Below are positions 8,085 through 31,256 of a DNA stretch of 64,000 nt, piece by piece. Origin of the DNA: a virus (Duplodnaviria > Heunggongvirae > Uroviricota > Caudoviricetes); the IMG/VR virus record IMGVR_UViG_3300008114_000011. One strand, 5' to 3'. Under the pieces are notes generated by a model. That model had not been told where the DNA came from. It saw only the letters and a list, made by a program, of their open reading frames with translations, and did no database searches. The translations under genes were made by a program, and so were the position numbers. Position 1 is the stretch's first letter. Each line of letters starts with the position of its first letter.

Positions 8085-8096
8085 ACAAAGACTAAT

Positions 8097-8318: not shown

Positions 8319-8344
8319 CACATAATTTACTTTTAATATGGTTT

Positions 8345-9247: not shown

Positions 9248-9262
9248 AAATAAAAACGAATT

Positions 9263-9481: not shown

Positions 9482-9490
9482 ATTGGACTT

Positions 9491-9775: not shown

Positions 9776-9780
9776 AAAAA

Positions 9781-9810
9781 AGTTTGAGTAGTCAATTAAC
9801 TACTCAAACT
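9781..9810. terminator. hairpin between convergent genes
   Basis: AGTTTGAGTAG-tcaattaa-CTACTCAAACT flanked by A-run / T-run. Confidence 0.45.
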
Positions 9811-10344
9811 AATATTATTTCCTACATAAAAAAGATAAGGAACACCACTTGGACTAGTTCCACTAACTGTCGGCGCACCATCCAAAGATGTCAATTTATT
9901 ATCTCTACAATCAAAAACATAAACCTTTTTTGGTGAACCTTCTAAAGATGTCAATTCATTTTTACTACAATCAAATCTTTCCACACCAATTTGTGGTGAT
10001 CCAACTAAAGTTGTTAATTGATTATTACTACAATTGAAATCCCCATTAATTTCTTTTGGAGCACCTTCTAAGGATGTTAATTGATTGTTACTACAATTGA
10101 AATCACCATTGACTTTATTAAACTTAACCGGTAACTTAGTTAGCTTTAAACCAGATAAATCAACATGACAATAAACATCAACAGATAAATCATCATTAAC
10201 TCTAAACCTTTTACCAATAGAGCTATCACCAATTAAATATAAATTACAAAGTCCAATCACTTTATTTTTAGCGGACTTTAACTTTTGTTCATCACTTTTT
10301 TCGAAGAAGTCAAAAAAACCTTCAAATGTTTTTAATTTTTTCAT
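9796..10344 (-). CDS. leucine-rich-repeat-like protein (~22-aa tandem repeats GDFNCSNNQLTSLEGAP) with MKKLKTFEGF N-terminus
   Basis: five tandem ~22-residue LRR-like units visible in protein and as ~66-nt DNA repeats. Confidence 0.65.
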   Translation of the reverse strand: MKKLKTFEGFFDFFEKSDEQKLKSAKNKVIGLCNLYLIGDSSIGKRFRVNDDLSVDVYCHVDLSGLKLTKLPVKFNKVNGDFNCSNNQLTSLEGAPKEINGDFNCSNNQLTTLVGSPQIGVERFDCSKNELTSLEGSPKKVYVFDCRDNKLTSLDGAPTVSGTSPSGVPYLFYVGNNISLSS

Positions 10345-10374
10345 TTCATTTATTTTTTTAAATATAATAATAAA

Positions 10375-10914
10375 TTATTTAAACTCTATAACAAACTTAA
10401 AATCATGTTTAAGTCCCACTATTTCACTTTCTGAAATTTTCTTTGAATATCTAAGTGAATTTACAGAGAAGTTTTCAGGTTTTAACCAATCTTGTTCACT
10501 ATATGTAAACATATAATAAGTAACCGAATAACCACTATCAGTTATTTTATTAGCAATTTCAAATAACTTCTTTTTATCAACCTTATCTAAAACTACATAG
10601 ATTGGTAAGTTTAATTTTTTTATATTCTTAGTTTTAATATAATCTGGATCATTTTTATAAAGGTATTCAATTGAATTTCCCATACTCAATAAATGAGCAC
10701 CTTTATCATTTGAATTATCAAAACTAGACTTTGATGTACTAACTAAATCACCTTCTTCAAAATTCAATTTAATCAATTTAACGCTTGGGTGGTTAAATGT
10801 AAACCTTCCTGGTGATGAATAGATAATAGCATCTGGTTTTATATTATTAAGTTCTTTTACTAAAGAAACTAAACTATCATTTGATAGTGACTCATATGTT
10901 TGTAAATATCTCAT
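10375..10914 (-). CDS. hypothetical protein (N-term MRYLQTYESL)
   Basis: ORF. Confidence 0.55.
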   Translation of the reverse strand: MRYLQTYESLSNDSLVSLVKELNNIKPDAIIYSSPGRFTFNHPSVKLIKLNFEEGDLVSTSKSSFDNSNDKGAHLLSMGNSIEYLYKNDPDYIKTKNIKKLNLPIYVVLDKVDKKKLFEIANKITDSGYSVTYYMFTYSEQDWLKPENFSVNSLRYSKKISESEIVGLKHDFKFVIEFK

Positions 10915-11210
10915 TATTCTTCATCATTATTTTCTGGTATCATATTACCTAAAGCATTAAAAATCTGAATACCATCAAAACCTTCAGTTCTTAATACATG
11001 ATAGAACTCAGCAAACTCTTGAGTTGAAAAATCTCTATTACCAAACTCAGCTTTAAATCTTTCGATAATTTCGGATGTTTTATCATCATTGATTACATTT
11101 TTCTTTCTTAAAAAATTGTCTAACTCTTTAGTTCTATCTGAACGTCTTTCATTTTCTTGATATGTTCCTCTATCACGTCCATAATTTTCAAATGTTTTAA
11201 TATTCTTCAT
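10914..11210 (-). CDS. hypothetical acidic small protein (N-term MKNIKTFENY)
   Basis: ORF; 3' ~40 nt duplicated at 16934-16970. Confidence 0.5.
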   Translation of the reverse strand: MKNIKTFENYGRDRGTYQENERRSDRTKELDNFLRKKNVINDDKTSEIIERFKAEFGNRDFSTQEFAEFYHVLRTEGFDGIQIFNALGNMIPENNDEE

Positions 11211-11258
11211 AATAATTTTTATTTTCTTTATATATTAAAAAGTAATTTTTATTTTTTT

Positions 11259-11266
11259 TATATTTG
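11259..11266 (+). promoter_or_regulatory. Bacteroidetes-type -7 box TAnnTTTG
   Basis: TATATTTG upstream of 11292. Confidence 0.4.
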
Positions 11267-11291
11267 TAGTATAAATTAAAAACGAAAAGAG

Positions 11292-11528
11292 ATGGCTGAT
11301 AAAACTCCAATGGAACAATTGATTGATAAGATTGATTTATACGATAAAAATGGTGGTATTAATATGTTTACATTAAAAGATGTTTTACAATCTTATCTTA
11401 AAATAGAGACTGAATATTTATCTAATTTAAAACTAGAGAAAGTAGAGAAGGTCAAGGAGGAGAAAAAACACCGTTGTCCAGAGTGTGGTAGATATAACTC
11501 AGGTACTTGTAATTGTTGGTTCTCTTAA
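11292..11528 (+). CDS. hypothetical protein, paralog of 1534..1986 N-domain with C-terminal zinc ribbon (CPECG..CNC)
   Basis: paralogy; TAnnTTTG box at 11259. Confidence 0.55.
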   Translation: MADKTPMEQLIDKIDLYDKNGGINMFTLKDVLQSYLKIETEYLSNLKLEKVEKVKEEKKHRCPECGRYNSGTCNCWFS

Positions 11529-11559
11529 TTGACTTCGTTAAAAATAAAACTGGAATAAT

Positions 11560-11823
11560 ATGAAAAGAATACTTTTAGGAATAGCAATCGGTATAACCGT
11601 AATCACTACATTATCAATGACTATTAGTGGTGCAACGAATGATAATAGATTTGGTGGAAACAGTGGTGTTATGTTAACTGTACCTGCTAAACCAACTTCG
11701 ACGGTATATGTAGGATACGATCAATTAAATAAATATCTACAAAAGGGATATCAAGTACAACAAGTAGTGACTGGTGATTATAATGAACCAAGAAATCATA
11801 GTTTCTTAATGGTTAAATATTAA
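11560..11823 (+). CDS. small secreted/membrane protein (signal-peptide-like N-terminus)
   Basis: hydrophobic N-terminus MKRILLGIAIGITVITTLS. Confidence 0.5.
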   Translation: MKRILLGIAIGITVITTLSMTISGATNDNRFGGNSGVMLTVPAKPTSTVYVGYDQLNKYLQKGYQVQQVVTGDYNEPRNHSFLMVKY

Positions 11824-11856
11824 AAGATTTTGGTGATTATTGTAAAAATATTACTA

Positions 11857-11950
11857 TATTTGTTTTAGTCAGGTGGCGGAATTGGTAGACGTTATTAGAG
11901 GTAAATCCATGTAGGTAAAATCGAAAGGTTCTCATACAGGTTCGAGTCCT
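11857..11950 (+). tRNA. tRNA-like gene (long-variable-arm type; GGCGGAATTGGTAGAC D-arm, GGTTCGAGTCC T-arm)
   Basis: acceptor AGTCAGG/CCTGACT pairing, canonical D and T arms; anticodon arm not resolved by eye; TAnnTTTG box immediately upstream. Confidence 0.5.
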
Positions 11951-12125
11951 GTCCTGACTACGAGGTTCTAACTATGTGTGGTTTTGTGTATTACATAGGG
12001 TGAGGTTTAGTAAATACCATTTATTGAATAAAAAATACACGCCAGGGCGGAAATGTAACTTAATACAACTGGGTTGACCTTGATCAGGTGTTACGTGAGT
12101 TCAAATCTCAATCTGTCCACTAAAT

Positions 12126-12215
12126 AGTCAGATCGTCTAATGGTAGGACGGCTAGATGACTCAGATACTGATTCTGAAAATTTTGCTTATATAGGTTCGA
12201 ATCCTTTTCTGACTA
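12126..12215 (+). tRNA. tRNA-like gene (D-arm CGTCTAATGGTAGGACG, T-arm GGTTCGAATCC)
   Basis: acceptor AGTCAGA/TCTGACT pairing; long extra arm; anticodon not resolved. Confidence 0.45.
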
Positions 12216-12224
12216 CGAACATGG

Positions 12225-12449
12225 TTGCTAAATAATATGAAAGACGAAATTAGAAAAATCATTGAGAGTGGTAATAATACTGATGATATTGTTGATAATA
12301 TATTAGAGTTATTAAAGAATAAATCAATAGTGGTTTATGATACTCGAGATAATATTGAATGGAAAAAAAATTTAAAACATATATTATTAGATAATAAAAA
12401 GTATGTTTTATATCCGAATAGAGAAAGAATTATAATTACTTGTGTATGA
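12225..12449 (+). CDS. hypothetical small protein
   Basis: ORF directly after tRNA-like gene. Confidence 0.4.
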   Translation: MLNNMKDEIRKIIESGNNTDDIVDNILELLKNKSIVVYDTRDNIEWKKNLKHILLDNKKYVLYPNRERIIITCV

Positions 12450-12506
12450 AGGGTAACTTCATAGATGAAATTAAGTTTGTGGGTATAACAGATTAAAACC
12501 CTCGTT

Positions 12507-12672
12507 AGTCAGGTGGCGGAATATTAACATCCCCGTTCTAGTTGTAAAAATAATGTGGTTAGAATCCACTACGGGGACAATGTTAATTTGGTAGACGCAC
12601 GAGAAGTACAATCGACAAGGCGGCCCTATAAACGGGAACGAGTGTGTACAGGTTCGAGTCCTGTTCTGACTT
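12507..12672 (+). tRNA. tRNA-like gene interrupted in the D-loop by a ~66-nt inverted-repeat insertion
   Basis: GTCAGGTGGCGGAAT[insert]TTGGTAGACGC...GGTTCGAGTCCTGTTCTGACT; insert ATTAACATCCCCGT...ACGGGGACAATGTTAAT. Confidence 0.4.
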
Positions 12673-12674
12673 CT

Positions 12675-12992
12675 ATGAGATCTATTAAAAAGGTCACCGA
12701 ATTATTTTATTTGGTGAATGAAAAAAATGATTATTCCGGTGAATACGATATAGAAATATTGTCAGAGATTACAGGGGAGGATTTTGATGATGAATCTATT
12801 GGAATATTTACAATAGATTCAAACAATACAATCGATGATGATTTTATATCAATCCGTCGTAAAACGATTTCAAGTGAACCATTTTTCTCTGAGGAGAAGA
12901 CAATATTCTATGAAGAGATACATCGAATAAGTATGAACGAATATAAGACATATTTAAGAGATAAGAAGATAAGTGAATTATTAAAAAAATAA
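12675..12992 (+). CDS. hypothetical protein with variant tail (RDKKISELLKK); ORF-track start 12555 overlaps tRNA-like gene
   Basis: internal ATG at 12675 after tRNA 3' end. Confidence 0.45.
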   Translation: MRSIKKVTELFYLVNEKNDYSGEYDIEILSEITGEDFDDESIGIFTIDSNNTIDDDFISIRRKTISSEPFFSEEKTIFYEEIHRISMNEYKTYLRDKKISELLKK

Positions 12993-13038
12993 TATGAGAG
13001 ATTTATAATAATTGGGTTTATAGTGTGTGATTTTTTAT

Positions 13039-13046
13039 TATATTTG
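13039..13046 (+). promoter_or_regulatory. Bacteroidetes-type -7 box TAnnTTTG
   Basis: TATATTTG upstream of 13063. Confidence 0.4.
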
Positions 13047-13062
13047 TTATAAAAGTATCTAA

Positions 13063-13542
13063 ATGAAAGTAATATTTTTAGACATAGATGGCGTTCTTAA
13101 CCTTTGTTACGAAGGTAGAGATGAATATGGATCACTATTTCATCCACACTTAGTAGACAATCTAAAACGATTGATTGATGAAACTGGTGCTAAGATTGTT
13201 ATAAGTAGTACTTGGCGTTTAAGTGGGTTAGAAATAATGAAAGAAATGTGGATTAAAAGAGGTTTACCAGGTGAGGTTATTGGTATAACTCCAAACTTTA
13301 TGAGACATTATGGCACAACTTTATGTAGAGGAAAAGAAATAGACGCTTATCTTAAAGAGAACAAAGATATTACGAGTTATTTAATCTTAGACGATGATAC
13401 AGATATGGAAGAACACCAACTACCTTATTTCGTAAAAACATCTGGTAATAAAGATCACGAAGATTGTGTTGATATTGGTTATGGTTTGACAAGAATCTGT
13501 ACGGATAAGGCAATAGAAATACTAAATAACTTAGAGTTATGA
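13063..13542 (+). CDS. HAD-superfamily phosphatase
   Basis: motif I FLDIDGVL near N-terminus, motif II VISSTWR; TAnnTTTG box at 13039. Confidence 0.65.
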   Translation: MKVIFLDIDGVLNLCYEGRDEYGSLFHPHLVDNLKRLIDETGAKIVISSTWRLSGLEIMKEMWIKRGLPGEVIGITPNFMRHYGTTLCRGKEIDAYLKENKDITSYLILDDDTDMEEHQLPYFVKTSGNKDHEDCVDIGYGLTRICTDKAIEILNNLEL

Positions 13543-13578
13543 ACTCGAATCTGATTTAAAACATTCTAAAGAAATTAA

Positions 13579-13956
13579 ATGTATAGAGAGTTCAAAAAAG
13601 GAGAAACATACCACGTAACATCAATCAGAGTTGATGGTACTGAAGGCTTTAGTATATTTAGACCCAACTCAACACAAAATGTATTCGACTCTATAATAGA
13701 TTGCCAAAGCTTCTCTAATATGAATAACCACTGGCACAAAAATAGTGTTGTATTCATTAGAAAATCAGATGGGGCCAACACTTACCCCTGGACATTAGGT
13801 GAAGGTACTTCTGTATGGAATAGACCAACTCGTCTTGCGACCGAACAAGAAAAACTAATATTAGATTCTGTACTACAAAGAGACGAGGCTCTAACAACTG
13901 CTGAAATTAGAGATATAAAGATTAATACCATTCTAAGTAAAAATGAAAAAAATTAA
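13579..13956 (+). CDS. hypothetical protein with decayed family tail (EIRDIKINTIL...)
   Basis: ORF. Confidence 0.45.
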   Translation: MYREFKKGETYHVTSIRVDGTEGFSIFRPNSTQNVFDSIIDCQSFSNMNNHWHKNSVVFIRKSDGANTYPWTLGEGTSVWNRPTRLATEQEKLILDSVLQRDEALTTAEIRDIKINTILSKNEKN

Positions 13957-14281
13957 AACCTGGTTCATTTATAGAACATATAAATTATTTTATAATGCAC
14001 CTGCTCCTAAATTTAAAATAGGTGACTCTGTTGTAACAGATGGTTATCTTAATACTAATGGTTATAAAATTGAAGGTGAAATAATCTCTATGAGATATAA
14101 TAAGCATGATAATATGTGGTTATGTGTAGTTAAGGATAATACACCATTTGAAAATAATCATACAACCAGTATGGGTTATGAATTTGACATTGATTTTCTA
14201 ACACTTACATTTCAAGAAGATCAATTACTACCTAGTAAATCTTATATTAGAAATAAAAAATTGGAAGAGTTAGGTATTTAA
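13943..14281 (+). CDS. small protein with RNKKLEELGI tail
   Basis: family tail. Confidence 0.6.
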   Translation: MKKIKTWFIYRTYKLFYNAPAPKFKIGDSVVTDGYLNTNGYKIEGEIISMRYNKHDNMWLCVVKDNTPFENNHTTSMGYEFDIDFLTLTFQEDQLLPSKSYIRNKKLEELGI

Positions 14282-14299
14282 ATAATAATAAATTAATAA

Positions 14300-14866
14300 A
14301 TGAAGTTTGAAACTGAACATTATAAATATTTTACATATTTATTGAATAAATATTTAATTTTAAAGGAAAAGTTCAAAGAAATATCTAATAGGGATTATAA
14401 ATTAAATATACTATTAAATCAAAAATATAGTGATATAGATGGAGATATTTCACAGTTAATTGATTTGATTGATAATTTATATGATGATTTGGATATAAAT
14501 AATTTGAATGAGAAAGTTTTATCTTGTATAGATTCACATATGGTAAAATTATCACACTTAATTAGTATTAATTATGGTAAGGGTGGCATTAGAACATCCT
14601 TGGAACGTGAATTGGATGGATATGCTGATAGAAATTTATGTGTATCTCCTGGTTTAACTGATATATCAAAATCAGGTGTCATACCAGCTAATTATTCAAA
14701 TGGAACTGGTGATGTACAAGAAATTATATATGCTACACATATATCAGGTGGTATGGATTCAACATTAAATATGCCTAATAGAATTGTCTTAGATAAATTA
14801 TCATATATTGATGGTGTCTTATTCAAATATAAAGGAATTTATAAATTAAGTAGTGATGGAAAATAA
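14300..14866 (+). CDS. hypothetical protein
   Basis: ORF. Confidence 0.5.
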   Translation: MKFETEHYKYFTYLLNKYLILKEKFKEISNRDYKLNILLNQKYSDIDGDISQLIDLIDNLYDDLDINNLNEKVLSCIDSHMVKLSHLISINYGKGGIRTSLERELDGYADRNLCVSPGLTDISKSGVIPANYSNGTGDVQEIIYATHISGGMDSTLNMPNRIVLDKLSYIDGVLFKYKGIYKLSSDGK

Positions 14867-15116
14867 ACTAAGTATTGGAGACTTCGTCAAATATAAATCT
14901 CATCCAAGTATATCACATTTCACTCGTAAATATCATAGAGGTCAGATAATCGATATCATAGAACCTTATACATGTCCTCATACCGGATCTCCTGAACCAG
15001 GTTCGATAACCATAGTAAGAGAAGATGGTTCTATAAACACAGACTATCATTATGTATTCGAATTAGATAGGGAGAAAATGAGGGATGATAAACTAAAGGA
15101 ATTAGGAATATGTTAA
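14853..15116 (+). CDS. small protein with RDDKLKELGI tail
   Basis: family tail. Confidence 0.65.
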   Translation: MMENKLSIGDFVKYKSHPSISHFTRKYHRGQIIDIIEPYTCPHTGSPEPGSITIVREDGSINTDYHYVFELDREKMRDDKLKELGIC

Positions 15117-15388
15117 AAGATATTATGACCGCAAAGCTGATTGCCAAGGAAGACTACTTCCTAACGCTCGACCTGGGATATAAAAATCCCACCCCCAACA
15201 AGGTGCTCACGAGAGGGAAGATCTACGAGTGCGAGGACATCTCCGGGACATCCCCTGATGATTTCCCTGATTATGACAAGTACTACAAGGTGATCGGCGA
15301 CGACGGAAACCGTCTGACCCTTGGCAAAGGAAGGTTCTTCTCCATAGAAGAGACGAGAGAAATGAAGCTGAAAGAAATTGGACTATGA
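15110..15388 (+). CDS. family member with REMKLKEIGL tail, strongly GC-rich codon usage
   Basis: family tail; GC-rich island. Confidence 0.65.
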   Translation: MLKDIMTAKLIAKEDYFLTLDLGYKNPTPNKVLTRGKIYECEDISGTSPDDFPDYDKYYKVIGDDGNRLTLGKGRFFSIEETREMKLKEIGL

Positions 15389-15872
15389 AACTCAAGATAG
15401 GAGATTGGGTCTTGCCGAAGAACCACATACGACAAAGCCCGCACATCAAAATGAAGGTCATAGACACGAGGGTCCTTTATTTGATATTAGATTAGTTGGT
15501 AATTCAATTATGTTTAGACTGAATCCTAATAGTAGAATTAACGATTTAGTTGAAACTATTGGATTCAAAATAAATAAACTATTAATTGATAACATTGCAT
15601 CAAAGAGTAGATTAGAAGTATTGGAATTCAGAAAAGGAAATATTTCAATCAAACTGGAAGCTACTAATTTTGGGAATAGATATGATTTTTTAATAAGTGA
15701 AGATGTTGAATACTCATATAATAGAAATGATATTGAAAAAAGAAGAGATCCAGGATTTAGATATACTGGATCCAGATTAGTCGGTACAGATACCAAAATC
15801 GATTATGGTTATATTAAATATGATTCATTTACATTAAATCTAAGTTCTTCACAAACTGAACCAGATTTTTAA
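15378..15872 (+). CDS. chimeric ORF containing PLFDIRLVGNSIMFRLNPNS segment; coding status uncertain
   Basis: ORF track; no family tail; mosaic. Confidence 0.3.
   Translation: MDYETQDRRLGLAEEPHTTKPAHQNEGHRHEGPLFDIRLVGNSIMFRLNPNSRINDLVETIGFKINKLLIDNIASKSRLEVLEFRKGNISIKLEATNFGNRYDFLISEDVEYSYNRNDIEKRRDPGFRYTGSRLVGTDTKIDYGYIKYDSFTLNLSSSQTEPDF
15385..15495 (+). pseudogene. truncated family member (MKLKIGDWVLPKNHIRQSPHIKMKVID..., homolog of 6697..6948 N-terminus)
   Basis: 36-codon ORF matching GDWV..KPHIKM+IIE then running out of frame into a segment copied from 8832..9032. Confidence 0.4.
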
Positions 15873-19823: not shown

Positions 19824-20084
19824 ATGAAAAATGTAATCTTAGGTGGTCTTATCACCATCATAACACTCGCTCTATTTAGTTATACAACAACTGATAATAG
19901 TCGCACCAATTATAATCATAGAACGATTTACAACATCCCTCTTAAACAAAGGAGAGTAATTACAACGAATGATATCAAAGTAGTAAATAAACTCGTTAAA
20001 GGAGGTTATAGAGTCGAATTCGTTACAGAGAATTGGTATAATAGTAATGGATCAGAAACAACTTATACTCTAATCTTATACTAA
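19824..20084 (+). CDS. small protein with N-terminal TM/signal
   Basis: hydrophobic N-terminus. Confidence 0.45.
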   Translation: MKNVILGGLITIITLALFSYTTTDNSRTNYNHRTIYNIPLKQRRVITTNDIKVVNKLVKGGYRVEFVTENWYNSNGSETTYTLILY

Positions 20085-20245
20085 AGATGAAAAAATTAAT
20101 TTATTCACCAGCCATTTCACTAATACTACATATTTTTATGTTTTATATGTTGTGGTTTTATTGGTCACTTCCAATGATTATAGTTTGGTCTATTTTTCTT
20201 GTAATTTACAATGAGAGAAGATACAATTGGAAAAAGTCCAGAAAA

Positions 20246-20271
20246 TACTAAAATCCGCACGTTTTTTAGTA
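20246..20271 (+). repeat. 26-nt GC-cored inverted-repeat element, orientation A (TACTAAAATCCGCACGTTTTTTAGTA)
   Basis: copy 1 of 8. Confidence 0.8.
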
Positions 20272-20364
20272 TTTTACTACGTAAAAATCTAAACTAAGTT
20301 TAGTATACCTGAGCTTGTGAAATCCAGATAAAATGCTTATCTTTGTTAATAATAATTTTATTAT

Positions 20365-20598
20365 ATGACAAAGTCCGAAATATTCAAATCTCAATTTCCC
20401 GATTTTTGTGGAACTCTTGGTTTCTATACTGAAGATTGCCAAATGGTAAACTTCATCGATGTTGAATCTGATATAGTTGAATTTGCAACATTAGTACCTA
20501 TGAGTTGTTCTAAAACCAAAGCACATTCAATTACATTATCCGAACTACTTGATGAAATGCCGGATAATGATTTTGAAAAATTCCTTGAAATTTTTTAA
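20365..20598 (+). CDS. hypothetical small protein
   Basis: ORF in repeat-delimited cassette. Confidence 0.4.
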   Translation: MTKSEIFKSQFPDFCGTLGFYTEDCQMVNFIDVESDIVEFATLVPMSCSKTKAHSITLSELLDEMPDNDFEKFLEIF

Positions 20599-20608
20599 AT
20601 TATAAGAT

Positions 20609-20965
20609 ATGGCATCTAAGAAAGCTAGAAAAAAGTTAAGACCCAAAGAAGATAAACAAAATTATCTAAAAGCTTATGTTTCATGGGACTTTGGGTTTAA
20701 ATCATTCAGAATATTAAATCGTGATAATTTTGATGTTATTTCAGAAAGAAAACTAATTAAAGATGGTAAACAATGCTGGTTTGATCTATCTAACGTTAAA
20801 GATGAAGTTGAAAGATATGCCACAGAAAGAGATTTATCTACATGGGGTTTAGGAGAATTATACCAATGTATCGATGATGAAGGGTTTAGTTATTCACATA
20901 AAGATCCTAACTTAGAAGGAGTTAAATCAAAGGCGAAACAAAAATCAATTATATTGATAGATTAA
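20609..20965 (+). CDS. hypothetical basic protein
   Basis: ORF. Confidence 0.45.
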   Translation: MASKKARKKLRPKEDKQNYLKAYVSWDFGFKSFRILNRDNFDVISERKLIKDGKQCWFDLSNVKDEVERYATERDLSTWGLGELYQCIDDEGFSYSHKDPNLEGVKSKAKQKSIILID

Positions 20966-20977
20966 AATATAATACAT

Positions 20978-21163
20978 ATGAAAGTAAGAAAAGGTGATAG
21001 TGTTAAGTTATTAAACGGCTTTAAAGAGACTATAAATGAAATTGATGTACATAAAGGTAAATTCAATATAAATGGTGAATATAATTATATGTCATTTATT
21101 ATTGCTGATATTATAGAATTAAATGGCGTAGATGTTAGATATAATACAAATTTGACTTTTTAA
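20978..21163 (+). CDS. hypothetical small protein
   Basis: ORF. Confidence 0.35.
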   Translation: MKVRKGDSVKLLNGFKETINEIDVHKGKFNINGEYNYMSFIIADIIELNGVDVRYNTNLTF

Positions 21164-21432
21164 AAAAATAAACTATGATAGCAATTATTCTTATACCAAT
21201 AATAATCACCAGTTTCCTTATCGGGAAATATACAGAGAGATTTCAATGGAATAAACTAATCAAATTAGGTAGAATTCCTAAACCAAATAACCCTAATCTA
21301 AATCATTCAGATTATTGGGCAAATAACTAGACTAAACAAACTAAAACATAAATATATGGAATACTTAGCTTATACATTTTTTGGAATGGTTATATACATT
21401 CTTGCTTATTTACTATTAAAACCTGAGAAATA

Positions 21433-21657
21433 ATGAATTTAGCAGACCAAATGAAAGCTGATATTAACTTTAATAAGATAATATCACAACTACAAAGAGA
21501 ATTCTCTTCCGGTAAATCTCAAGTTCTTATTGATAGCAACCTTTTAGAGAATAACATACAACGCCTTAGAGACGAAGGCTTCCATGTTGATACTGATGGT
21601 TTCCAATATAATGGTGGTGCCTACGTTTCATTCAAGAAGAAAAATCAATGGATGTAA
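21433..21657 (+). CDS. hypothetical small protein
   Basis: ORF. Confidence 0.4.
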   Translation: MNLADQMKADINFNKIISQLQREFSSGKSQVLIDSNLLENNIQRLRDEGFHVDTDGFQYNGGAYVSFKKKNQWM

Positions 21658-21664
21658 ATCAGAT

Positions 21665-21982
21665 ATGATTAAAAATCCAAAATTTACTCAGATTGGTGAA
21701 GAAGTTCATGATGATATAATTGAACTAATTCAGGATATTACTGTTTCTGGTATTCATTATTCTTCAAAGCCATATAGTAATTGTGAAATCAAAATAAAGA
21801 GTATTCTACTTACACTCGTATTTGGTAAATGGTCATATCTTATCAATTATGAAATAGGTGATAAAAATATGAATTTCTATACTTCTGAGAGACATAGTTC
21901 ATTAGATAATAAAATTGAAGAATATTTAGATAAACATATGACCCAAATAATAAGGGATGAGAAAATAAGAGAAATACTTTGA
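21665..21982 (+). CDS. small protein with RDEKIREIL tail variant (ORF-track start 21584 overlaps upstream gene)
   Basis: internal ATG. Confidence 0.45.
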   Translation: MIKNPKFTQIGEEVHDDIIELIQDITVSGIHYSSKPYSNCEIKIKSILLTLVFGKWSYLINYEIGDKNMNFYTSERHSSLDNKIEEYLDKHMTQIIRDEKIREIL

Positions 21983-22410
21983 AAATGGTCTTTACCATGT
22001 CAATGAAACAAAAAACAAACCAAATGATTAACACACGTATCTTCAATATAAAGTCATTTAAAGGGTTCACCTTAGGTAAAGAGTATCTTATATTAGATAA
22101 CTCACCAGGGACTAAGAAATCACACGAAATCATTGGCTCAAATGATCATGACTGGATAGCATTCCACTATCAATATGATGGATATGTAAGTCCATATGAG
22201 TATTTTGATTACCTATCTAAAAGGAACGCTATGCGTAAAAAGAAAATAGGCAAACAAAAGAATGAAAAGAAAGAAAGATTCTATATCATAGATGATTTTG
22301 GAAAAAGAAGATCATTCACAAGAAATGAATTAAATATGATATTCACTAATAATAGTGATGATATAACTTTAGAAATACGTAACGCTAAACTAAATACTTT
22401 AAATATATGA
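21979..22410 (+). CDS. small protein (FTLGKEYLIL core) with RNAKLNTLNI tail
   Basis: family motifs. Confidence 0.5.
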   Translation: MKMVFTMSMKQKTNQMINTRIFNIKSFKGFTLGKEYLILDNSPGTKKSHEIIGSNDHDWIAFHYQYDGYVSPYEYFDYLSKRNAMRKKKIGKQKNEKKERFYIIDDFGKRRSFTRNELNMIFTNNSDDITLEIRNAKLNTLNI

Positions 22411-22736
22411 TAGATTTATTAGAAATAATACTTATAGTAGGATTATTGGTATTCACATTTTTTCTTTTTACCACACTTTGGTTATTAATTAAATACCCAA
22501 AGTATGCAAATAAAATGATAAGTAAAATGATATGGGGTAAAGAGTGGGTTAAAAAGAATAAAAAACTAAATCCATAAGAAGTTGTTTTTATGAAATAAAA
22601 ACCCTACTCACTTGTGAGAGTCATATAAAATGACTATCTTTATAATGTCAATGAGAACATCGAAGACGGGTCCGTATAACTCCAATACGTAGAGGGTAAA
22701 CTCCAACCTGCTTATATAAATAATAAAACAAATAAA

Positions 22737-22762
22737 TACTAAAAAACGTGCGGATTTTAGTA
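22737..22762 (-). repeat. 26-nt element, orientation B (TACTAAAAAACGTGCGGATTTTAGTA)
   Basis: copy 2. Confidence 0.8.
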
Positions 22763-22780
22763 TTTTGTCTCATTTTTATT

Positions 22781-22788
22781 TATATTTG
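22781..22788 (+). promoter_or_regulatory. -7 box within conserved promoter TTATATTTGTATAAACTAAA (copy 1), 20 nt after a 26-nt repeat
   Basis: identical 20-mer at 23979-23998. Confidence 0.45.
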
Positions 22789-22834
22789 TATAAACTAAAT
22801 GTTATGGCTAAAACTAATACTAAATTAAATAGAA

Positions 22835-23041
22835 ATGGAAAAGTTTTTTAAAATACTAATAATAGTTTGTGCAATATTTATAGTTGTGAATAATTACCAA
22901 AATGGAATTGATAAAAATTACCCAATAATGCAATTAGGTGTAACATCTTTATGGATGTTGGTATCTTTTATTCTGTATAAAAGTATTAATAGTAAAGGTA
23001 AACTAAAAAGAAAACCTTTAAATTTTGAGGAAAAATACTAA
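22835..23041 (+). CDS. small membrane protein (2 TM)
   Basis: ORF flanked on both sides by the 26-nt repeat. Confidence 0.4.
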   Translation: MEKFFKILIIVCAIFIVVNNYQNGIDKNYPIMQLGVTSLWMLVSFILYKSINSKGKLKRKPLNFEEKY

Positions 23042-23061
23042 AAAACGTGCGGATTTTAGTA
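23036..23061 (-). repeat. 26-nt element, orientation B
   Basis: copy 3. Confidence 0.8.
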
Positions 23062-23107
23062 TAATCTAAACAAAGTTTAGTATATTTGTTCTACAAAACA
23101 AGTTCCT

Positions 23108-23386
23108 ATGAAAACTACCGAAGAATATAAAATGGATACTTTCCGTATGTGGGAAGGAGACTGCCACCCAGCTATATACAAGAAAAATAAAAAAGGTGAA
23201 TGGGATTACCTATTCCTCGTCAGTAGCAAAGAAGAGGGACAGGCATACCTGGAAGACCACTCCACCATAAAGAGACGATACATTCAGGACCGCGTACTAA
23301 TCTACACCCTTTTCGTGATACCAGCGTCAGCTCTGTTGTTATGGTCAATAATAGTAGGTATATTGGCAGTAACCGGGAATATGTAA
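23108..23386 (+). CDS. small membrane-anchored protein, GC-rich
   Basis: ORF; C-terminal TM. Confidence 0.45.
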   Translation: MKTTEEYKMDTFRMWEGDCHPAIYKKNKKGEWDYLFLVSSKEEGQAYLEDHSTIKRRYIQDRVLIYTLFVIPASALLLWSIIVGILAVTGNM

Positions 23387-23421
23387 TCAAGATTTAATGT
23401 AGGTAAAATTATTTTATTAAA

Positions 23422-23715
23422 ATGAAAACACATTTGACTAACCCCAAGACAAATAAAACATTAGTCTTGGACCACAATATAGAACAGACTGTTTTTGATT
23501 CAATATTTAATGATTCAAAAGAATTGTTTTATAATAAACAAGAAGAAATTGAAGAAATATATGGTGTTTCTTTTGATTTATGTGATTTGAAAATTGATGG
23601 TGAATTATTATATGGTTATTTTATCAACGATTTAACTTCAGATGAAATTTTAGAAGAAATATTTAACGATTTAAATAAATTCATCATAGATAATATTGGA
23701 GAAGTAATAAACTAA
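23422..23715 (+). CDS. hypothetical acidic protein
   Basis: ORF. Confidence 0.45.
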   Translation: MKTHLTNPKTNKTLVLDHNIEQTVFDSIFNDSKELFYNKQEEIEEIYGVSFDLCDLKIDGELLYGYFINDLTSDEILEEIFNDLNKFIIDNIGEVIN

Positions 23716-23728
23716 AAGAATTAGGAAT

Positions 23729-23932
23729 ATGGACCAACAAATGAATATTATATGTATAGCTGAAGGTACTTACAAAATAACTAAAGGCAAGACCTACCAA
23801 GTAAACGCACATTCAACTCACCAATATTGGATCATAGATGATGAAGGTCATATGCAATTGATAGGTAAAGACTTTTTCAGAACACAACAAGAAATAAGAG
23901 AAGAGAAGTTAAATGAACTTGGAATAATCTAA
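23729..23932 (+). CDS. family member (NIICIAEGTYKITKGKTYQV, REEKLNELGII)
   Basis: family motifs. Confidence 0.65.
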   Translation: MDQQMNIICIAEGTYKITKGKTYQVNAHSTHQYWIIDDEGHMQLIGKDFFRTQQEIREEKLNELGII

Positions 23933-23945
23933 ATTTTACTAATAA

Positions 23946-23971
23946 AATACTAAAATCCGCACGTTTTTTAG
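23946..23971 (+). repeat. 26-nt element, orientation A
   Basis: copy 4. Confidence 0.8.
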
Positions 23972-23980
23972 TATTTATTT

Positions 23981-23988
23981 CTTATATT
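23981..23988 (+). promoter_or_regulatory. -7 box within conserved promoter TTATATTTGTATAAACTAAA (copy 2)
   Basis: identical 20-mer at 22779-22798. Confidence 0.45.
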
Positions 23989-24012
23989 TGTATAAACTAA
24001 AAATAAACAACC

Positions 24013-24177
24013 ATGATAACCTTATTCAAAAAACTATTCAATAAAGATTGTAATCACAAGTGGGAACTTGTACAAAACGATAAAAAACTAAATATCAAAG
24101 TCCACCAATGTGACAATTGCAATAAAAGAAAATTAAATGTATCAACATCATTCGGTAATGAAGTAATTGAATTATAA
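24013..24177 (+). CDS. 54-aa zinc-ribbon-like protein (below ORF-track cutoff)
   Basis: ATG 24013 sits ~25 nt after TAnnTTTG box at 23981; CNHKW..HQCDNCNKRK. Confidence 0.3.
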   Translation: MITLFKKLFNKDCNHKWELVQNDKKLNIKVHQCDNCNKRKLNVSTSFGNEVIEL

Positions 24178-24500
24178 TCTTAAAGGTTAGATACAAACCT
24201 AATCAGCGTCCATCTCCATAATCCAATAGGAGGCAAATATATCTAACCTTCAATGAAACTAAGGCATTGAGCCAAGATGCTGTTAGTGTGCGTTATTTAT
24301 TAGTAGAATGGCTTGAGGGCAACCCTATTATCGAATGTTTAGAGTATTGGAGTAATCTACCTAAATACGAAGGTTTTAAAATAGAACACACTATTTGTCG
24401 TATTACTAATGCACACTAACGTATCGGGGCTTTGCGTAGTAGTCCTTAGTAGAAACTTAAAATTAACCACGACACTTGATAGGGCTATTACACAAAGCCC

Positions 24501-24731
24501 TTGTTATGTGCCGTTAAATTTCACAAAATGAGATACGAAGAAAAAATTATCGAACACACAGAAGAAGAAACAGACTTCTTACCACTCAAAGAAGCAATAG
24601 TGAATATCGAATTTTCTCAAGGTGACTTGATTGAAATGAGAGATATTTTAAGACAATTTAAGCCTAATTTATGGGCAAAAGGATTGTTGTCAGATATAGA
24701 AGCCACACTCGAAAAGGTGTCGGTGTATTAA
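24501..24731 (+). CDS. hypothetical small protein
   Basis: ORF between two GC-richer non-coding segments. Confidence 0.35.
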   Translation: MLCAVKFHKMRYEEKIIEHTEEETDFLPLKEAIVNIEFSQGDLIEMRDILRQFKPNLWAKGLLSDIEATLEKVSVY

Positions 24732-24871
24732 TGGCCCGTTTTGCGGTTTTGTGTTAGGCTACGAAGCCTTGGCATTGAGCGGTCGAGCAGCTTGCACAAA
24801 ACCGCTGTTATACGCTGGCACGGGTAATTTAGTAGGAACTTAATTTGAAACACAAATAAAAATCAAAAGCA

Positions 24872-25174
24872 ATGGCAACAGTAATTTATGAAATACCAAA
24901 CTCCGTAAAGGAAATGTTTGAACAAGGCGAAAATAGTTATCGCATTATTGACTATTCAATACAGGAAATGGATAACATCCAAAGTATGCAACATTTCCTT
25001 GACTGTATAGGTGCAACAACGGATAATATCGAAACAGATGATGGAACGCAAGTAGTAGTAATTCATCCCGATTTTGACCACAAACTTGTAATTGATAGTG
25101 GTGGGTTGGGTGATTTTTATTCTCACGGTTATGACGTAACTCTCTATTCGGAAACGGTCAGTAGTGCTTGTTAA
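24872..25174 (+). CDS. hypothetical acidic protein
   Basis: ORF. Confidence 0.4.
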   Translation: MATVIYEIPNSVKEMFEQGENSYRIIDYSIQEMDNIQSMQHFLDCIGATTDNIETDDGTQVVVIHPDFDHKLVIDSGGLGDFYSHGYDVTLYSETVSSAC

Positions 25175-25188
25175 ATATAAAAAACATC

Positions 25189-25398
25189 ATGAAAGATTAC
25201 AAGAAAGGTGATGAATTCACATCTAAAAACTCAGGGACTATTTCAACAATAATAGAGATTGCATCGGAAGATGTCCTAAACTGGTACGGATTAGAAGGTC
25301 CAGCGTTCTGGATAAATGAGAATGGAAGCTCTCAATTAAGACTTTGTACCATAGAAGGCCTCAAAGAACTATTCATTATACCCGAAGAGAAAAAATAG
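25189..25398 (+). CDS. hypothetical small protein
   Basis: ORF (probable start MKDYKKGDEF). Confidence 0.4.
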   Translation: MKDYKKGDEFTSKNSGTISTIIEIASEDVLNWYGLEGPAFWINENGSSQLRLCTIEGLKELFIIPEEKK

Positions 25399-25474
25399 GT
25401 TTCTGACTTCGTGGAAAAATAGTGAACCTTCGTTAACTCAGGTACTAAACTTCGTTTAGAGTTTCTAAAGAAAC

Positions 25475-25500
25475 TACTAAAATCCGTGCGGATTTTAGTA
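25475..25500 (+). repeat. 26-nt element variant (TACTAAAATCCGTGCGGATTTTAGTA, near-perfect palindrome)
   Basis: copy 5. Confidence 0.7.
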
Positions 25501-25584
25501 TCATTAGCTTGTGATATACAGATAAAATCATTATCTTTATACTCACAGAGTGAGAGTATAAAATACTAAAACAAAATAAGAGAT

Positions 25585-26004
25585 ATGAACCTTGACACTA
25601 TAATAAAATCACAAATAATCGGATTAGAAATCGGAATAATAAACGTTATCAAAACAACCGAGTTTAACGTACACGCAATCGCAAACGAATTATCCGATAT
25701 ATTAGGTAAAGAAAATATCCAAATATTCAAAGTTGGTACCCACACAGGTATATCAATACCAGAAATCGTTAAACAATTCGATAACTTCGACTACTCTAAA
25801 CCAATCATAATCGTTACAAACAAAGACGCAATCTATAAACATATCATACCAAGAAACGGTAAAGTAATTCAATCTAAATGCCCAAAAACAGGCTTCCTAA
25901 TCCTAAACGATGTTAAATGGAAATTCACACGTTTCCAATCTACTTTCGAAGGAACAATAACTCAACTAAGAAGAGATTACCAATTAGAAACACTAATAAA
26001 TTAA
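25585..26004 (+). CDS. hypothetical protein with RRDYQLETLIN tail variant
   Basis: ORF. Confidence 0.5.
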   Translation: MNLDTIIKSQIIGLEIGIINVIKTTEFNVHAIANELSDILGKENIQIFKVGTHTGISIPEIVKQFDNFDYSKPIIIVTNKDAIYKHIIPRNGKVIQSKCPKTGFLILNDVKWKFTRFQSTFEGTITQLRRDYQLETLIN

Positions 26005-26019
26005 AAAATAGGTTAGGTG

Positions 26020-26093
26020 GGTAGCTCAACTGGAAAGAGCCTCTCATTAAGAGAGAGATTAAGGTTCGAATCCTGTCCCTTCTGACCTATACT
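26020..26093 (+). tRNA. tRNA-like element, possibly degenerate or partial (GTAGCTCAACTGG D-arm, GGTTCGAATCC T-arm, candidate TAA anticodon)
   Basis: D-arm, anticodon hairpin CTCTC-ATTAAGA-GAGAG and T-arm are recognisable but the acceptor stem pairs poorly. Confidence 0.35.
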
Positions 26094-26108
26094 AAACTTC
26101 AGAGAAGA

Positions 26109-26134
26109 TACTAAAATCCGCACGTTTTTTAGTA
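26109..26134 (+). repeat. 26-nt element, orientation A
   Basis: copy 6, directly after the tRNA-like element. Confidence 0.8.
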
Positions 26135-26348
26135 TCTTCTTTAGTTCTGATTGATCCGAGCCGCCCGAAATCACCGATTAAAATTGTTAAAAACCAGGTA
26201 AAAACCCAGTGGATTTTTTACTGAAAAATGACCCTCTGGAAACGTAAGCAGGTCAAGGCTTTCCGAGAGGTGTGTATATACAAATTGGTGCTGAAAATAA
26301 GGCTACTGGTAGAGAAAATGAAATGGCGATAGAGTTTACACAAAAATA

Positions 26349-26374
26349 TACTAAAAAACGACCGGATTTTAGTA
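26349..26374 (-). repeat. 26-nt element variant (TACTAAAAAACGACCGGATTTTAGTA)
   Basis: copy 7. Confidence 0.65.
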
Positions 26375-26389
26375 TGTTGAAAAATAAGG

Positions 26390-26415
26390 TACTAAAAAGT
26401 GTGCGGAATTTAGTA
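26390..26415 (-). repeat. 26-nt element variant (TACTAAAAAGTGTGCGGAATTTAGTA)
   Basis: copy 8. Confidence 0.6.
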
Positions 26416-28353: not shown

Positions 28354-28803
28354 TTGTTATATACCGTAAAAATGTGGGATGGTAAAAAATTAAAATTAGA
28401 TATGAAACATAAAATAAAAACAACTCTACGAGAGTTTATTAGGGAAGAACTTGAAAAATTAGATTATTTTTCAACTAATATAGATGGACATCGTTTTGAA
28501 TTGTTGAAAGATGGTGAAGTGGTAGGTTGGACAATGTTTAGTAATGTCATTAAAAATAATAAATTCAATAATCAACCACATATAAGTTTGTGGGATTTAA
28601 TGATAAAAGAACAATATAGAAAGAAAGGATATTCTAAAATATTAATGGAAAAAGTTTTAGAATATTTAAGATACAGTGTAGATATTGTGGATTTACAGGT
28701 TATGGAACATAATAAACCTGCAGTAAATTTATATAAGAGTTTTGGATTTGAAATTTATCATAATACTGGACAAGGTGTTCTTTATATGTCAAAAAAATTT
28801 TAA
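28354..28803 (+). CDS. GNAT-family N-acetyltransferase
   Basis: acetyl-CoA motif A Q-YRKKGYSKILMEKVLEY and motif B NKPAVNLYKSFGF. Confidence 0.6.
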   Translation: MLYTVKMWDGKKLKLDMKHKIKTTLREFIREELEKLDYFSTNIDGHRFELLKDGEVVGWTMFSNVIKNNKFNNQPHISLWDLMIKEQYRKKGYSKILMEKVLEYLRYSVDIVDLQVMEHNKPAVNLYKSFGFEIYHNTGQGVLYMSKKF

Positions 28804-29873: not shown

Positions 29874-29969
29874 TTATTCATATACGCTGTTAGCAAATCG
29901 TTTTAATGTTTGCTAACTAGATTATATCTCTAAATCAACATTAATAATTAATTTACAAATACTTAACAT

Positions 29970-30770
29970 ATGAAAAAGACAAATTATTACGAAATTTGTA
30001 ATCAAAAATTGAAGTATTTAAACTATTCAGATAGGACTATCAAGTCCTATCTTTATTATATTAATCAATTTTTAGAAAATACTAAAATACCACCAACCAG
30101 ATTAACAGCAACAGATTTCCAACAATATCTCAATAATTACAATTTTACCTCCACCTCACAACAAAATCAAGTCATAAACTCAATAAGATTCCTATACAAA
30201 GAATCACTTAATAAAAAATATGATAAGGTTGATTTTAAAAGACCTAGATCTGAAAAGAAACTACCAAAAGTAATTGATGGCGATTATATCAAATCTAAAC
30301 TTTCTAAAATAGAAAACCTTAAGCATAAAACTATACTTACTTTAACCTATTCAGTTGGTTTAAGAGTTTCCGAAATAATAAATCTTAAAATAGAAGATAT
30401 TGACTCCAAAAGAATGATTATTCATATTAAAAATGCTAAAGGTAAAAAAGATAGAATTGTACCACTTTCAGAAAACGTACAAAATCTAATAAAAATATAT
30501 TCAGAAAAATATACACCAAAAGAATATCTTTTTAATGGTCAATCCACAAACAAATATTCAATACAATCCTGTCAAAATATCTATAAAAAATATATTGATG
30601 AAAATTCATCTATACATACCCTCAGACACTCAGCCTTTACCAACCTCTTAGAAAATGGAACAGATCTAAGAATAATACAGAAAATAGCAGGTCACTCATC
30701 CACCAAAACAACAGAGATATATACACACGTTTCTAATCAACTTTTAAATAAAGTTAATCTACCAATTTAA
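29970..30770 (+). CDS. tyrosine recombinase/integrase (XerC/D-like)
   Basis: C-terminal catalytic block HTLRHSAFTNLLENGTDLRIIQKIAGHSSTKTTEIYTHV (R..H-x-x-R..Y). Confidence 0.85.
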   Translation: MKKTNYYEICNQKLKYLNYSDRTIKSYLYYINQFLENTKIPPTRLTATDFQQYLNNYNFTSTSQQNQVINSIRFLYKESLNKKYDKVDFKRPRSEKKLPKVIDGDYIKSKLSKIENLKHKTILTLTYSVGLRVSEIINLKIEDIDSKRMIIHIKNAKGKKDRIVPLSENVQNLIKIYSEKYTPKEYLFNGQSTNKYSIQSCQNIYKKYIDENSSIHTLRHSAFTNLLENGTDLRIIQKIAGHSSTKTTEIYTHVSNQLLNKVNLPI

Positions 30771-30794: not shown

Positions 30795-31256
30795 ATGATT
30801 ATATTTGTATATAATCACACACATAATATGATAAAGTTTGTTAAGAAGTCGAGTTCGGGGTCTACAAAAGAGGTGGATTTAATATTATCTGATGTTAGTA
30901 ATTGTAAATCATTAGCATCTTCTATCTTATTAAGAAAATATTTAATGGAGATGGATGTGGATTATATAGAGAAGATGGATTTGATTAATAAACGTATTGA
31001 GTTTAGTAGAAGTTATTTAGAGAGTGTTTTATCTCGTGATGGTGATATTAAGTGTACTTATTGTGGTAAGGGAGATTTGGTTATTGAGTATGATGGGATG
31101 CGTGTCAAAGAAAGTATAAAGGCTACGATTGATCATATCGTTCCTGTATCAAGAGGAGGAGGTAGGTTTGATGTTAGTAATATAACTCCATGTTGTGGTG
31201 AGTGTAATGGTAAGAAGGGTAATAAGTCATTAGATGATTTTCTAAAGTCGATTTAA
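30795..31256 (+). CDS. HNH endonuclease
   Basis: CTYCGK...IDHIVPVSRGGGRFDVSNITPCCGECNGKKGNK. Confidence 0.7.
   Translation: MIIFVYNHTHNMIKFVKKSSSGSTKEVDLILSDVSNCKSLASSILLRKYLMEMDVDYIEKMDLINKRIEFSRSYLESVLSRDGDIKCTYCGKGDLVIEYDGMRVKESIKATIDHIVPVSRGGGRFDVSNITPCCGECNGKKGNKSLDDFLKSI

Follow-up and report, generated by a model that had tools for sequence, protein, structure and literature searches.

A repeated intergenic dyad with host-type promoters in a mosaic region of a large phage, probably of Bacteroidota

The stoperators of Cluster A mycobacteriophages such as L5 and Bxb1 are 13-bp asymmetric sequences that occur genome-wide, oriented with transcription, and are bound by the prophage repressor, acting both as operators and as blocks to elongation. 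Cluster O mycobacteriophages carry 17-bp dyad repeats in intergenic positions near promoters, which are presumed to be regulatory, and we know of no regulator for them. In T4-type phages, the promoter-early stem-loops (PeSLs) are terminator/promoter motifs found in ORFan-rich regions (Arbiol et al. 2010, PMC2839356; Comeau et al. 2014, PMC4122927). Here, a 26-nt element, TACTAAAATCCGCACGTTTTTTAGTA, is described from a 64,000-nt stretch of a Caudoviricetes genome (IMG/VR record IMGVR_UViG_3300008114_000011), which is referred to below as the window. The element is the invariant core of intergenic cassettes, made up of a dyad and a host-type promoter, that punctuate tiny ORFans, small-RNA genes and a tRNA gene.

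The dyad is tentatively read as a sequence-specific protein-binding site, an operator or insulator, with a probability of roughly 0.45. The original prediction, made from the letters of the window, had named an operator as the alternative to PeSL-like cassettes, and this alternative gains the most support, from invariant arms, a 10.4-bp phasing with the -7 box of the promoter and a fixed 41-bp spacing of tandem copies. A binding site is favoured over a plain terminator because the arms are invariant without covariation, because of the phasing and the fixed tandem spacing, and because the element is indifferent to orientation and has a poor U-tract.

Copies of the element and their conservation

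The whole 64 kb was searched on both strands with TACTAAAATCCGCACGTTTTTTAGTA, allowing up to three mismatches, with 100 shuffled sequences as control. Eight matches were obtained, all within positions 20246-26415, with none elsewhere in the window and none in the shuffles. This bears out the predicted eight copies in both orientations, at coordinates that were mostly right; the fourth copy starts at 23948 and not at 23946, and the accessory modules had been placed 1-12 nt off. The copies and their accessory hairpins are as follows:

20246..20271 (+): copy 1, canonical core TCCGCACGTT; open reading frame (ORF) 20087-20251 ends with its TAA
22737..22762 (-): copy 2, flipped core (AACGTGCGGA on the + strand), 26 nt after a small-RNA candidate, with a -7 box 18 nt downstream
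23036..23061 (-): copy 3, flipped core, at the stop codon of ORF 22835-23041, with a -7 box 19 nt downstream
23948..23973 (+): copy 4, canonical core, with a -7 box 9 nt downstream
25475..25500 (no strand assigned): copy 5, a perfect 12-2-12 palindrome, TACTAAAATCCG TG CGGATTTTAGTA
26109..26134 (+): copy 6, 24 nt after tRNA-Leu; flanks lengthen the stem to about 14-16 bp (-17.9 kcal/mol)
26349..26374 (-): copy 7, two mismatches, proximal half of a tandem pair, core AACGACCGGA on the + strand, abutting a -7-like box on the - strand
26390..26415 (-): copy 8, three mismatches, distal half of the tandem pair
20287..20307 (+): accessory hairpin ATCTAAACTAAGTTTAGTATA, one arm of which is similar to the element arm (TACTAAAC)
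25443..25474 (+): 32-nt block of two accessory small hairpins, TACTAAAC-TTC-GTTTAG and GTTTCT-AA-AGAAAC

The 8-bp arms, TACTAAAA and TTTTAGTA, are perfect inverted repeats, and the 10-nt core TCCGCACGTT is asymmetric, with 60% G+C compared to about 28% for the window, both as originally described. The reported position at stop codons holds as well: the copies at 20246 and 23036 supply the TAA (TAC TAA) of ORFs 20087-20251 and 22835-23041, and all credible ORFs near the copies are on the + strand. The extra modules are confirmed with corrected starts, the AGCTTGTGA... module at 20312 and 25506, and ATCTAAAC..GTTTAGTATA at 20287 and 23064. The 32-nt block at 25443-25474 is missing in two related loci (L031 and L001) through a deletion between direct TACTAAA repeats. 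The units between copies were thought to hold 1-4 genes and actually hold 1 to about 10 small ORFs, together with tRNA-Leu and non-coding segments. A Pfam scan of the cassette ORFs at 18.4-28.3 kb gave nothing above threshold, except for a GNAT acetyltransferase at 28354-28803.

Beyond the window, a degenerate-pattern search found the element at 58 metagenome loci (given L numbers here), mostly from lakes or other freshwater and many with 2-7 copies, and a relaxed scan of these loci yielded about 130 distinct copies. The original prediction had named absence elsewhere, combined with a lack of synteny breaks at the copies in related genomes, as a ground for giving it up, and the element clearly recurs. 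The strict motif has no match in IMG/VR viral contigs, and an arms-only scan of IMG/VR returned 118 or more loci; all but one of them are single-copy, the exception having two copies, and these matches look accidental. Among 185,579 prokaryote genomes there are two single matches, both probably due to chance; the element is therefore not a host regulon motif. A full-text literature search for the element sequence gave no match. In a 642-kb uncultured phage (L067, LR756502.1), similar dyads lie at 20002-20027 (TACTAAAATTCGTTCGTTTTTTAGTA) and 20265-20290 (a two-mismatch copy), and the element family may therefore reach distantly related huge phages.

For context counts, 109 copies were oriented by the local coding strand. 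Nearly all (107 of 109) lie outside ORFs of at least 60 aa, and an upstream TAA stop is shared by 12. Relative to transcription, the core is canonical in 38 copies and flipped in 23, with no preference within promoter classes; the orientation of the element is irrelevant to its context. The canonical core or its reverse complement dominates, while AAGCAACAGT, AGGCCGAGGA and AACGTACAAA also occur with the arms unchanged.

Divergence was measured on orthologous pairs aligned through their flanks, without gaps, with core values that allow for flips. At 30% flank divergence the arms differ by 2.1% and the core by 16%, and at 15% flank divergence the values are 0% and 8%, respectively. No compensatory pairs were seen among the arm variants. 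Since the arms are near-invariant without compensatory changes, the constraint acts on sequence, beyond pairing, and the dyad shows what is expected of an operator, namely conservation beyond the neutral rate without structure-only changes. Furthermore, positions -1, -3 and -4 are mostly A, positions +1, +3 and +4 are mostly T, and position +/-2 covaries. Effectively, the element amounts to a dyad of approximately 34 bp, AA(W)A-TACTAAAA-N10-TTTTAGTA-T(W)TT.

Promoter geometry, transcript ends and non-coding units

The -7 consensus of Bacteroidota sigma-A is TAnnTTTG (PMC9723704). Judging by its sequence, the promoter next to the element is of this Bacteroidota -33/-7 type (TTG-N20-TAnnTTTG) and not of the sigma-70 type. 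A sigma-70 scan showed no excess (80 sites versus 86 expected), and the sigma-70-like early promoter that belongs to a PeSL was not found. The conserved promoter motif of the original prediction, TATATTTGTATAAAC, is real, with exact matches at 22781, 23983 and also 7763, but begins 18 and 9 nt after the element and not about 20. The AGCTTGTGA... module reads as a second promoter of the same -33/-7 class. The putative promoter features are:

22781..22788 (+): -7 box TATATTTG (Bacteroidota sigma-A type), promoter for ORFs 22806 and 22835
23081..23088 (+): -7 box TATATTTG, overlapping the small hairpin ATCTAAACAAAGTTTAGTATA (23064-23084), upstream of ORF 23108-23386
23983..23990 (+): -7 box TATATTTG, upstream of ORF 24013-24177
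20315..20345 (+): second promoter type, TTG (20315-20317), 20 nt, TATCTTTG (20338-20345), the same as the AGCTTGTGA... module
25509..25539 (+): second promoter type, TTG, 20 nt, TATCTTTA, after copy 5 and upstream of ORF 25585-26004
22612..22642 (+): second promoter type, TTG, 20 nt, TATCTTTA, preceding the small-RNA candidate

Downstream of the element, TAnnTTTG occurs 93 times within 56 nt, compared to 6-35 times for decoy motifs, and the distances between the element end and the -7 box fall into clusters at 0, 8-10, 16-19, 28-31 and 38-41 nt. These offsets have a periodicity of 10.4 bp (Rayleigh R 0.63, p<0.001) across 35 spacer families of unrelated sequence, which may still share ancestry, and the decoy motifs tested for the same periodicity are not periodic. 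Inserted modules that separate the element from the promoter have lengths of 21, 31 and 21 nt. In addition, tandem pairs are spaced 41 bp start to start at every related locus with a pair, with 15-nt spacers that are unrelated in sequence and with diverged cores. The 10.4-bp phasing and the 41-bp tandem spacing constitute the fixed geometry to promoters that an operator calls for. The arrangement also bears on the idea that the copies are DNA sites without a role in transcription, such as a partition or centromere-like site, a replication origin or a packaging signal. Such sites would suit the confinement of all copies to 6 kb of the 64 kb, and the three copies in a 450-nt non-coding stretch that includes the fixed-spacing tandem pair. 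However, the copies are found one per intergenic gap among genes and in phase with promoters, and no gene for ParB, a replication initiator or a terminase was found in the vicinity, which makes this idea improbable.

When transcribed, the copies are predicted to fold with -7.5 to -10 kcal/mol, with copy 5 at -14 and copy 6 at -17.9 kcal/mol, and only one copy does not fold better than shuffled sequences. A 2x2 internal mismatch interrupts the AU-rich stems, whose arms contain just one G-C pair. For 94 copies oriented with transcription in one-directional gene arrays, a downstream T-run of at least four is present in 24 (26%), and the upstream A-bias (62%) exceeds the downstream T-bias (52%). 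A generic terminator scan detected only copy 5. An intrinsic terminator combines a stable G+C-rich hairpin with a direct U-tract, a combination that the element does not show, and its hairpin is predicted to be a poor intrinsic terminator. Ordinary G+C-rich bidirectional terminators (A-tract, stem, T-tract) are present at convergent gene ends at 51515-51540 (aaaaaaCCCACTCaattGAGTGGGtttttt) and 9780-9812. Truly divergent intergenic regions hold two copies (L056:9986 and L028:7546), where nothing upstream needs termination; the other apparent divergent-gene contexts were discarded, as they actually involve a small-RNA gene on the other strand.

The non-coding units next to the element are:

26015..26084 (+): tRNA-Leu(TAA), followed 24 nt on by copy 6
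22645..22711 (+): conserved non-coding RNA candidate (GTCAATGA...CCTGC; GTCAATGAGAACATCGAAGACGGGTCCGTATAACTCCAATACGTAGAGGGTAAACTCCAACCTGC) with its own -33/-7 promoter at 22612-22642 and no Rfam match
26135..26348 (-): G+C-richer non-coding segment between copies 6 and 7, into which a -7-like box, TATTTTTG (26348-26341, - strand), points

The small-RNA candidate has homologues in at least 15 related loci, and of 16 homologous loci, 10 have the element after it. One of its helices shows compensatory changes (CCGTAT/ATACG versus GAGTGT/ACACT), with a variable insertion in L015. In five related loci (L017, L030, L036, L047 and L058), a -7-like box after the tandem pair leads into G+C-richer non-coding segments, each of which ends at another element. 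These segments are 70-115 nt long in the related loci (70-210 nt overall), contain conserved blocks (..CTATCGGCA.. and ..GTATATACA..) and may be further small RNAs. Rfam, both at the gathering threshold and at E<=5, matched only tRNAs and left the element, the small-RNA candidate and the G+C-rich non-coding segments unmatched. One Rfam match is a 90-nt tRNA at 12126-12215 (40 bits) that ARAGORN does not call. In L007 (6542-6624) and L055, an element and promoter are followed by an unusual tRNA-like gene whose anticodon loop has 8 nt.

As a protein-binding site, the element would offer its two arms as half-sites to a sequence-specific dimeric DNA-binding protein, probably encoded by the phage. 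This protein would be bound on a fixed helix face relative to the host-type sigma-A promoter (TTG -33, TAnnTTTG -7) just downstream, where it would control that set of promoters and insulate the adjacent transcription units. A likely secondary role is that the transcribed dyad, as an AU-rich hairpin, attenuates read-through from the upstream unit.

Several observations weigh against such a site. About half of the copies are without a TAnnTTTG within 60-80 nt, and a simple repressor would not usually have a site whose position varies from an overlap with the -33 region to some 40 nt upstream of it. With about 18 bp between their centres, the half-sites are separated by no integral number of helical turns, and the conserved asymmetry of the inner core (TC versus AA) is not explained by a homodimer. 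The possible common ancestry of the spacer families also counts here. Furthermore, the layout is terminator-like: tRNA-Leu, many ORFs and, at 10 of 16 loci, the small-RNA candidate have the element at their 3' end, 12 copies share a stop codon, and the flanks are A-rich upstream and T-rich downstream. Lastly, no helix-turn-helix or other DNA-binding Pfam family was found among the approximately 130 ORFs of the window, which covers less than half of the genome.

A pooled Pfam scan of 96 further window ORFs gave no DNA-binding or transposase family either. An 87-aa Zn-ribbon protein (MKLIFCPDCQD...CECGKC...) was considered as the regulator and rejected, being absent from the window and having no informative domain. 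It is about 90% identical across loci and is located directly downstream of element and promoter in several spacing classes (L003, L004, L022, L029, L030, L036, L043, L045, L047 and L058).

The main rival to a binding site is a PeSL-type composite, in which the hairpin serves chiefly as a bidirectional, factor-independent terminator or attenuator between numerous small transcription units, and the arms look conserved solely through shared descent and homogenising recombination. This would account for the position of the element right after stops (the 12 shared TAA codons), tRNA-Leu, the small-RNA candidate and other non-coding segments, for the order of A-tract, hairpin and T-tract, and for the ability to work in either orientation with a promoter usually next. 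It also agrees with the folding of all copies but one, most clearly copy 6 with its stem of 14-16 bp, and with the covariation at position +/-2. However, the stems, which are AU-rich and weak, share a conserved internal mismatch, T-runs of at least four follow only 26% of the copies, and in one-directional gene arrays the A-bias upstream is greater than the T-bias downstream. Arm sequences change at less than a tenth of the rate of the flanks, and show no compensatory changes. Copies are also found in divergent regions, the window has ordinary G+C-rich terminators at other places, and neither the 10.4-bp phasing nor the fixed 41-bp tandem spacing is given a reason. As the principal role it is unlikely, though by no means negligible, and a PeSL-like attenuator could also be a secondary role of the element. 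What stands of the PeSL-like cassettes in the original prediction is the element with a host-type promoter in a mosaic ORFan region; the missing sigma-70 promoter speaks against membership in the T4 PeSLs.

Core flipping and cassette exchange

The core of the element changes in place between near-identical genomes. The copies L004:7089 and L025:1563 have flanks that are 99% identical and an inverted core, and the same holds for L044:1382 and L004:5250. At the site of copy 5, with flanks 97-98% identical, four states are found: the palindrome (window), the canonical core (L031), CGCGCG (L026) and the flipped core (L064). These alignments show directly, as a by-product of the dyad, that the core flips or becomes a perfect palindrome between unchanged flanks. 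No inverted gene cassettes were seen among the relatives. The two orientations therefore arise because the core flips between the arms, and not through insertion or cassette inversion; that copies occur in both orientations was correctly predicted, but it is no sign of either process.

Either strand switching templated by the hairpin or short gene conversion among the copies could produce the flips. Hairpin-loop inversion and quasipalindrome correction by template switching are known from chloroplast non-coding DNA and from T4 rII mutagenesis. As in the element, the loop inverts or an imperfect palindrome is perfected while the flanks stay the same. This is a mutational process and not a function, and for the element it accounts for the two orientations. 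A comparison of the core with what we take to be the consensus of the Bacteroides Mpi invertase repeats gave only 8 of 10 positions alike and was dropped.

The region is highly mosaic, ORFan-rich and hyperplastic, and the cassette shuffling at the element that had been predicted holds in part. The proposed check for presence/absence polymorphism in related genomes gave a positive case by direct alignment: L021 has one copy where the window has two (23948 and 25475) flanking 1.5 kb, in the order homologue of 23729-23932, one element, promoter and homologue of 25585-26004. Homology breakpoints within 10 nt of an element number 11, compared to 3.6 +/- 1.8 expected (about 3-fold), but about 100 of the 123 breakpoints are away from elements, mostly at gene boundaries, and a strict flank-matching search for a solo copy versus a flanked cassette gave few events. 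As a second by-product that is shown directly, the repeated cassettes are sometimes crossover points for cassette gain or loss; insertions and deletions through recombination between copies, as known for PeSLs, do occur here, though most breakpoints lie elsewhere.

Other insertions and deletions are unrelated to the element, as 23387-23701 is replaced in L031 and 24237-25170 is absent in L064. The latter segment (934 nt, higher G+C, two ORFs; L064 flanks 95-97% identical) looks like a recent insertion of foreign origin, and contains non-coding stretches with strong self-complementarity, e.g. GCGGTTTTGTG...CACAAAACCGC at 24740-24810. More than 20 small genes (200-15400, 23700-23930 and 43865-46365) end in R(D/E)xKLxELGI followed by the stop, often with an ATGA start/stop overlap, which points to a large paralogous family of tiny proteins. 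A cassette-replacement breakpoint at 23702 (L031 versus the window) falls within this motif.

One gene near the region could be relevant to exchange:

29970-30770: Xer/integron-integrase-like tyrosine recombinase gene, 266 aa, 3.5 kb from the element region

The dyads might be exchange points recognised by this Xer-like or another phage-encoded tyrosine recombinase, with core sites in a 9-8-9 arrangement (TACTAAAAW, an 8-bp asymmetric spacer, WTTTTAGTA) and with spacer variants as compatibility groups, so that ORFan, small-RNA and tRNA cassettes are traded. If true, this would be an integron- or shufflon-like device inside a jumbo phage. The architecture is like that of lox, FRT and dif, the arms are conserved while spacers vary and chimeric cores occur, and some cassette junctions are at the element. 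However, canonical and flipped copies are interspersed in a one-directional array, yet no inverted cassette is present in relatives, a core flip with unchanged flanks is impossible for a recombinase acting on two sites, and most breakpoints are elsewhere. The Xer-like protein scores below every curated family cut-off, and an inverted repeat of its own, GTTAGCAAA-N11-TTTGCTAAC, lies just upstream of the gene at 29886-29914. In the element-bearing related loci the gene was not found, save for a 40-aa N-terminal match: the upstream region and the first 40 codons are common to L007 and L055 (98% DNA identity, 109 nt), and the remainder is not. No link between the element and the Xer-like recombinase was found, and exchange sites of this kind are very unlikely.

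The least likely explanation is a miniature mobile palindrome, similar to a repetitive extragenic palindrome (REP) or a miniature inverted-repeat transposable element (MITE), that inserts intergenically in either orientation. The many near-identical intergenic copies in both orientations would agree with this. However, 53 orthologous pairs include no clean empty site, with the single site lacking the element showing divergence, and orientation changes in place. There is no apparent target-site duplication, the position relative to promoters is constrained, and no transposase family, HUH/RAYT-type or other, was found among the window ORFs; the presence/absence of a unit together with a transposase, as expected for REP/MITE, is thus not observed. 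The window also has many homing-endonuclease-type genes, at 30795-31256, 46405-47193, 48863-49846, 53754-54587 and 59137-61158, with HNH, NUMOD3, GIY-YIG + NUMOD1 and intein-splicing/LAGLIDADG domains, the last split over two adjacent minus-strand ORFs.

The phage, its presumed host and described systems

Identical copies of one protein are encoded on 22 metagenome contigs, which are up to 160 kb long. The window is part of a large phage of at least 160 kb and makes up less than half of its genome; the phage is probably jumbo and lytic. Among 50,697 phage genomes, Megablast found none that matches the region, and no T4 core genes were identified in the window. The nearest phage matches are the Tenacibaculum jumbo phage PTm1 (NAMPT, 46% identity) and uncultured huge phages. 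At 56025-57749 (+), a 574-aa ORF carries a C-terminal sorting domain of the type IX secretion system (T9SS; Por_Secre_tail), a domain that is restricted to Bacteroidota and therefore points to the host phylum. No Shine-Dalgarno sequences were found before the start codons. The host is probably a member of Bacteroidota, because of this domain, the nearest NAMPT in PTm1, the lack of Shine-Dalgarno sequences and the TAnnTTTG -7 boxes. An IF-3 homologue is encoded at 58500-59033 (+; IF3_N E=5e-19, IF3_C E=9e-26), which deserves mention because the presumed host phylum is without Shine-Dalgarno-led initiation.

Large Bacteroidota phages are abundant in lakes and guts, and to our knowledge nothing is known about the timing of their gene expression. 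A fixed dyad phased with host-type promoters, marking a set of tiny genes and small RNAs, provides a handle on this timing. Repeated regulatory cassettes that serve as recombination points are known from T4-type coliphages, and the element carries this concept over to a host phylum unrelated to theirs. It also illustrates clearly, in nature, how hairpin loops flip and palindromes become perfect between viral genomes that are nearly identical. For specialists it is a useful lead, and no surprise in kind.

Compared to the T4 PeSLs, the element is likewise a repeated intergenic stem-loop with a host-type promoter that flanks ORFans in hyperplastic regions. In both, the stem-loop is upstream of or overlaps the promoter, and some junctions of insertions or deletions between relatives fall inside the motif. 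The promoter, however, is of the sigma-70 type in the PeSLs and of the functionally analogous Bacteroidota -33/-7 type here, and the G/C-tract hairpin of the PeSLs contrasts with a fixed-sequence AU-rich dyad. The 10.4-bp promoter phasing, the in-place core flips and the location of most breakpoints off the motif also set the element apart.

With the stoperators, the element has in common the many copies of a short protein-binding sequence, putative in its case, in short intergenic gaps near stops and promoters; it differs as a 26-34-bp dyad that is orientation-indifferent and clustered, in a probably lytic jumbo phage. The Cluster O repeats are similar in being dozens of intergenic dyad-symmetric copies near promoters, but differ in sequence, size and host phylum, and the element adds phasing, flipping and cassette junctions. 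Taken together, these likenesses suggest that the element works like the T4 PeSLs, the mycobacteriophage stoperators or the dyad repeats, while it differs from them in promoter type, hairpin, phasing and core flipping.

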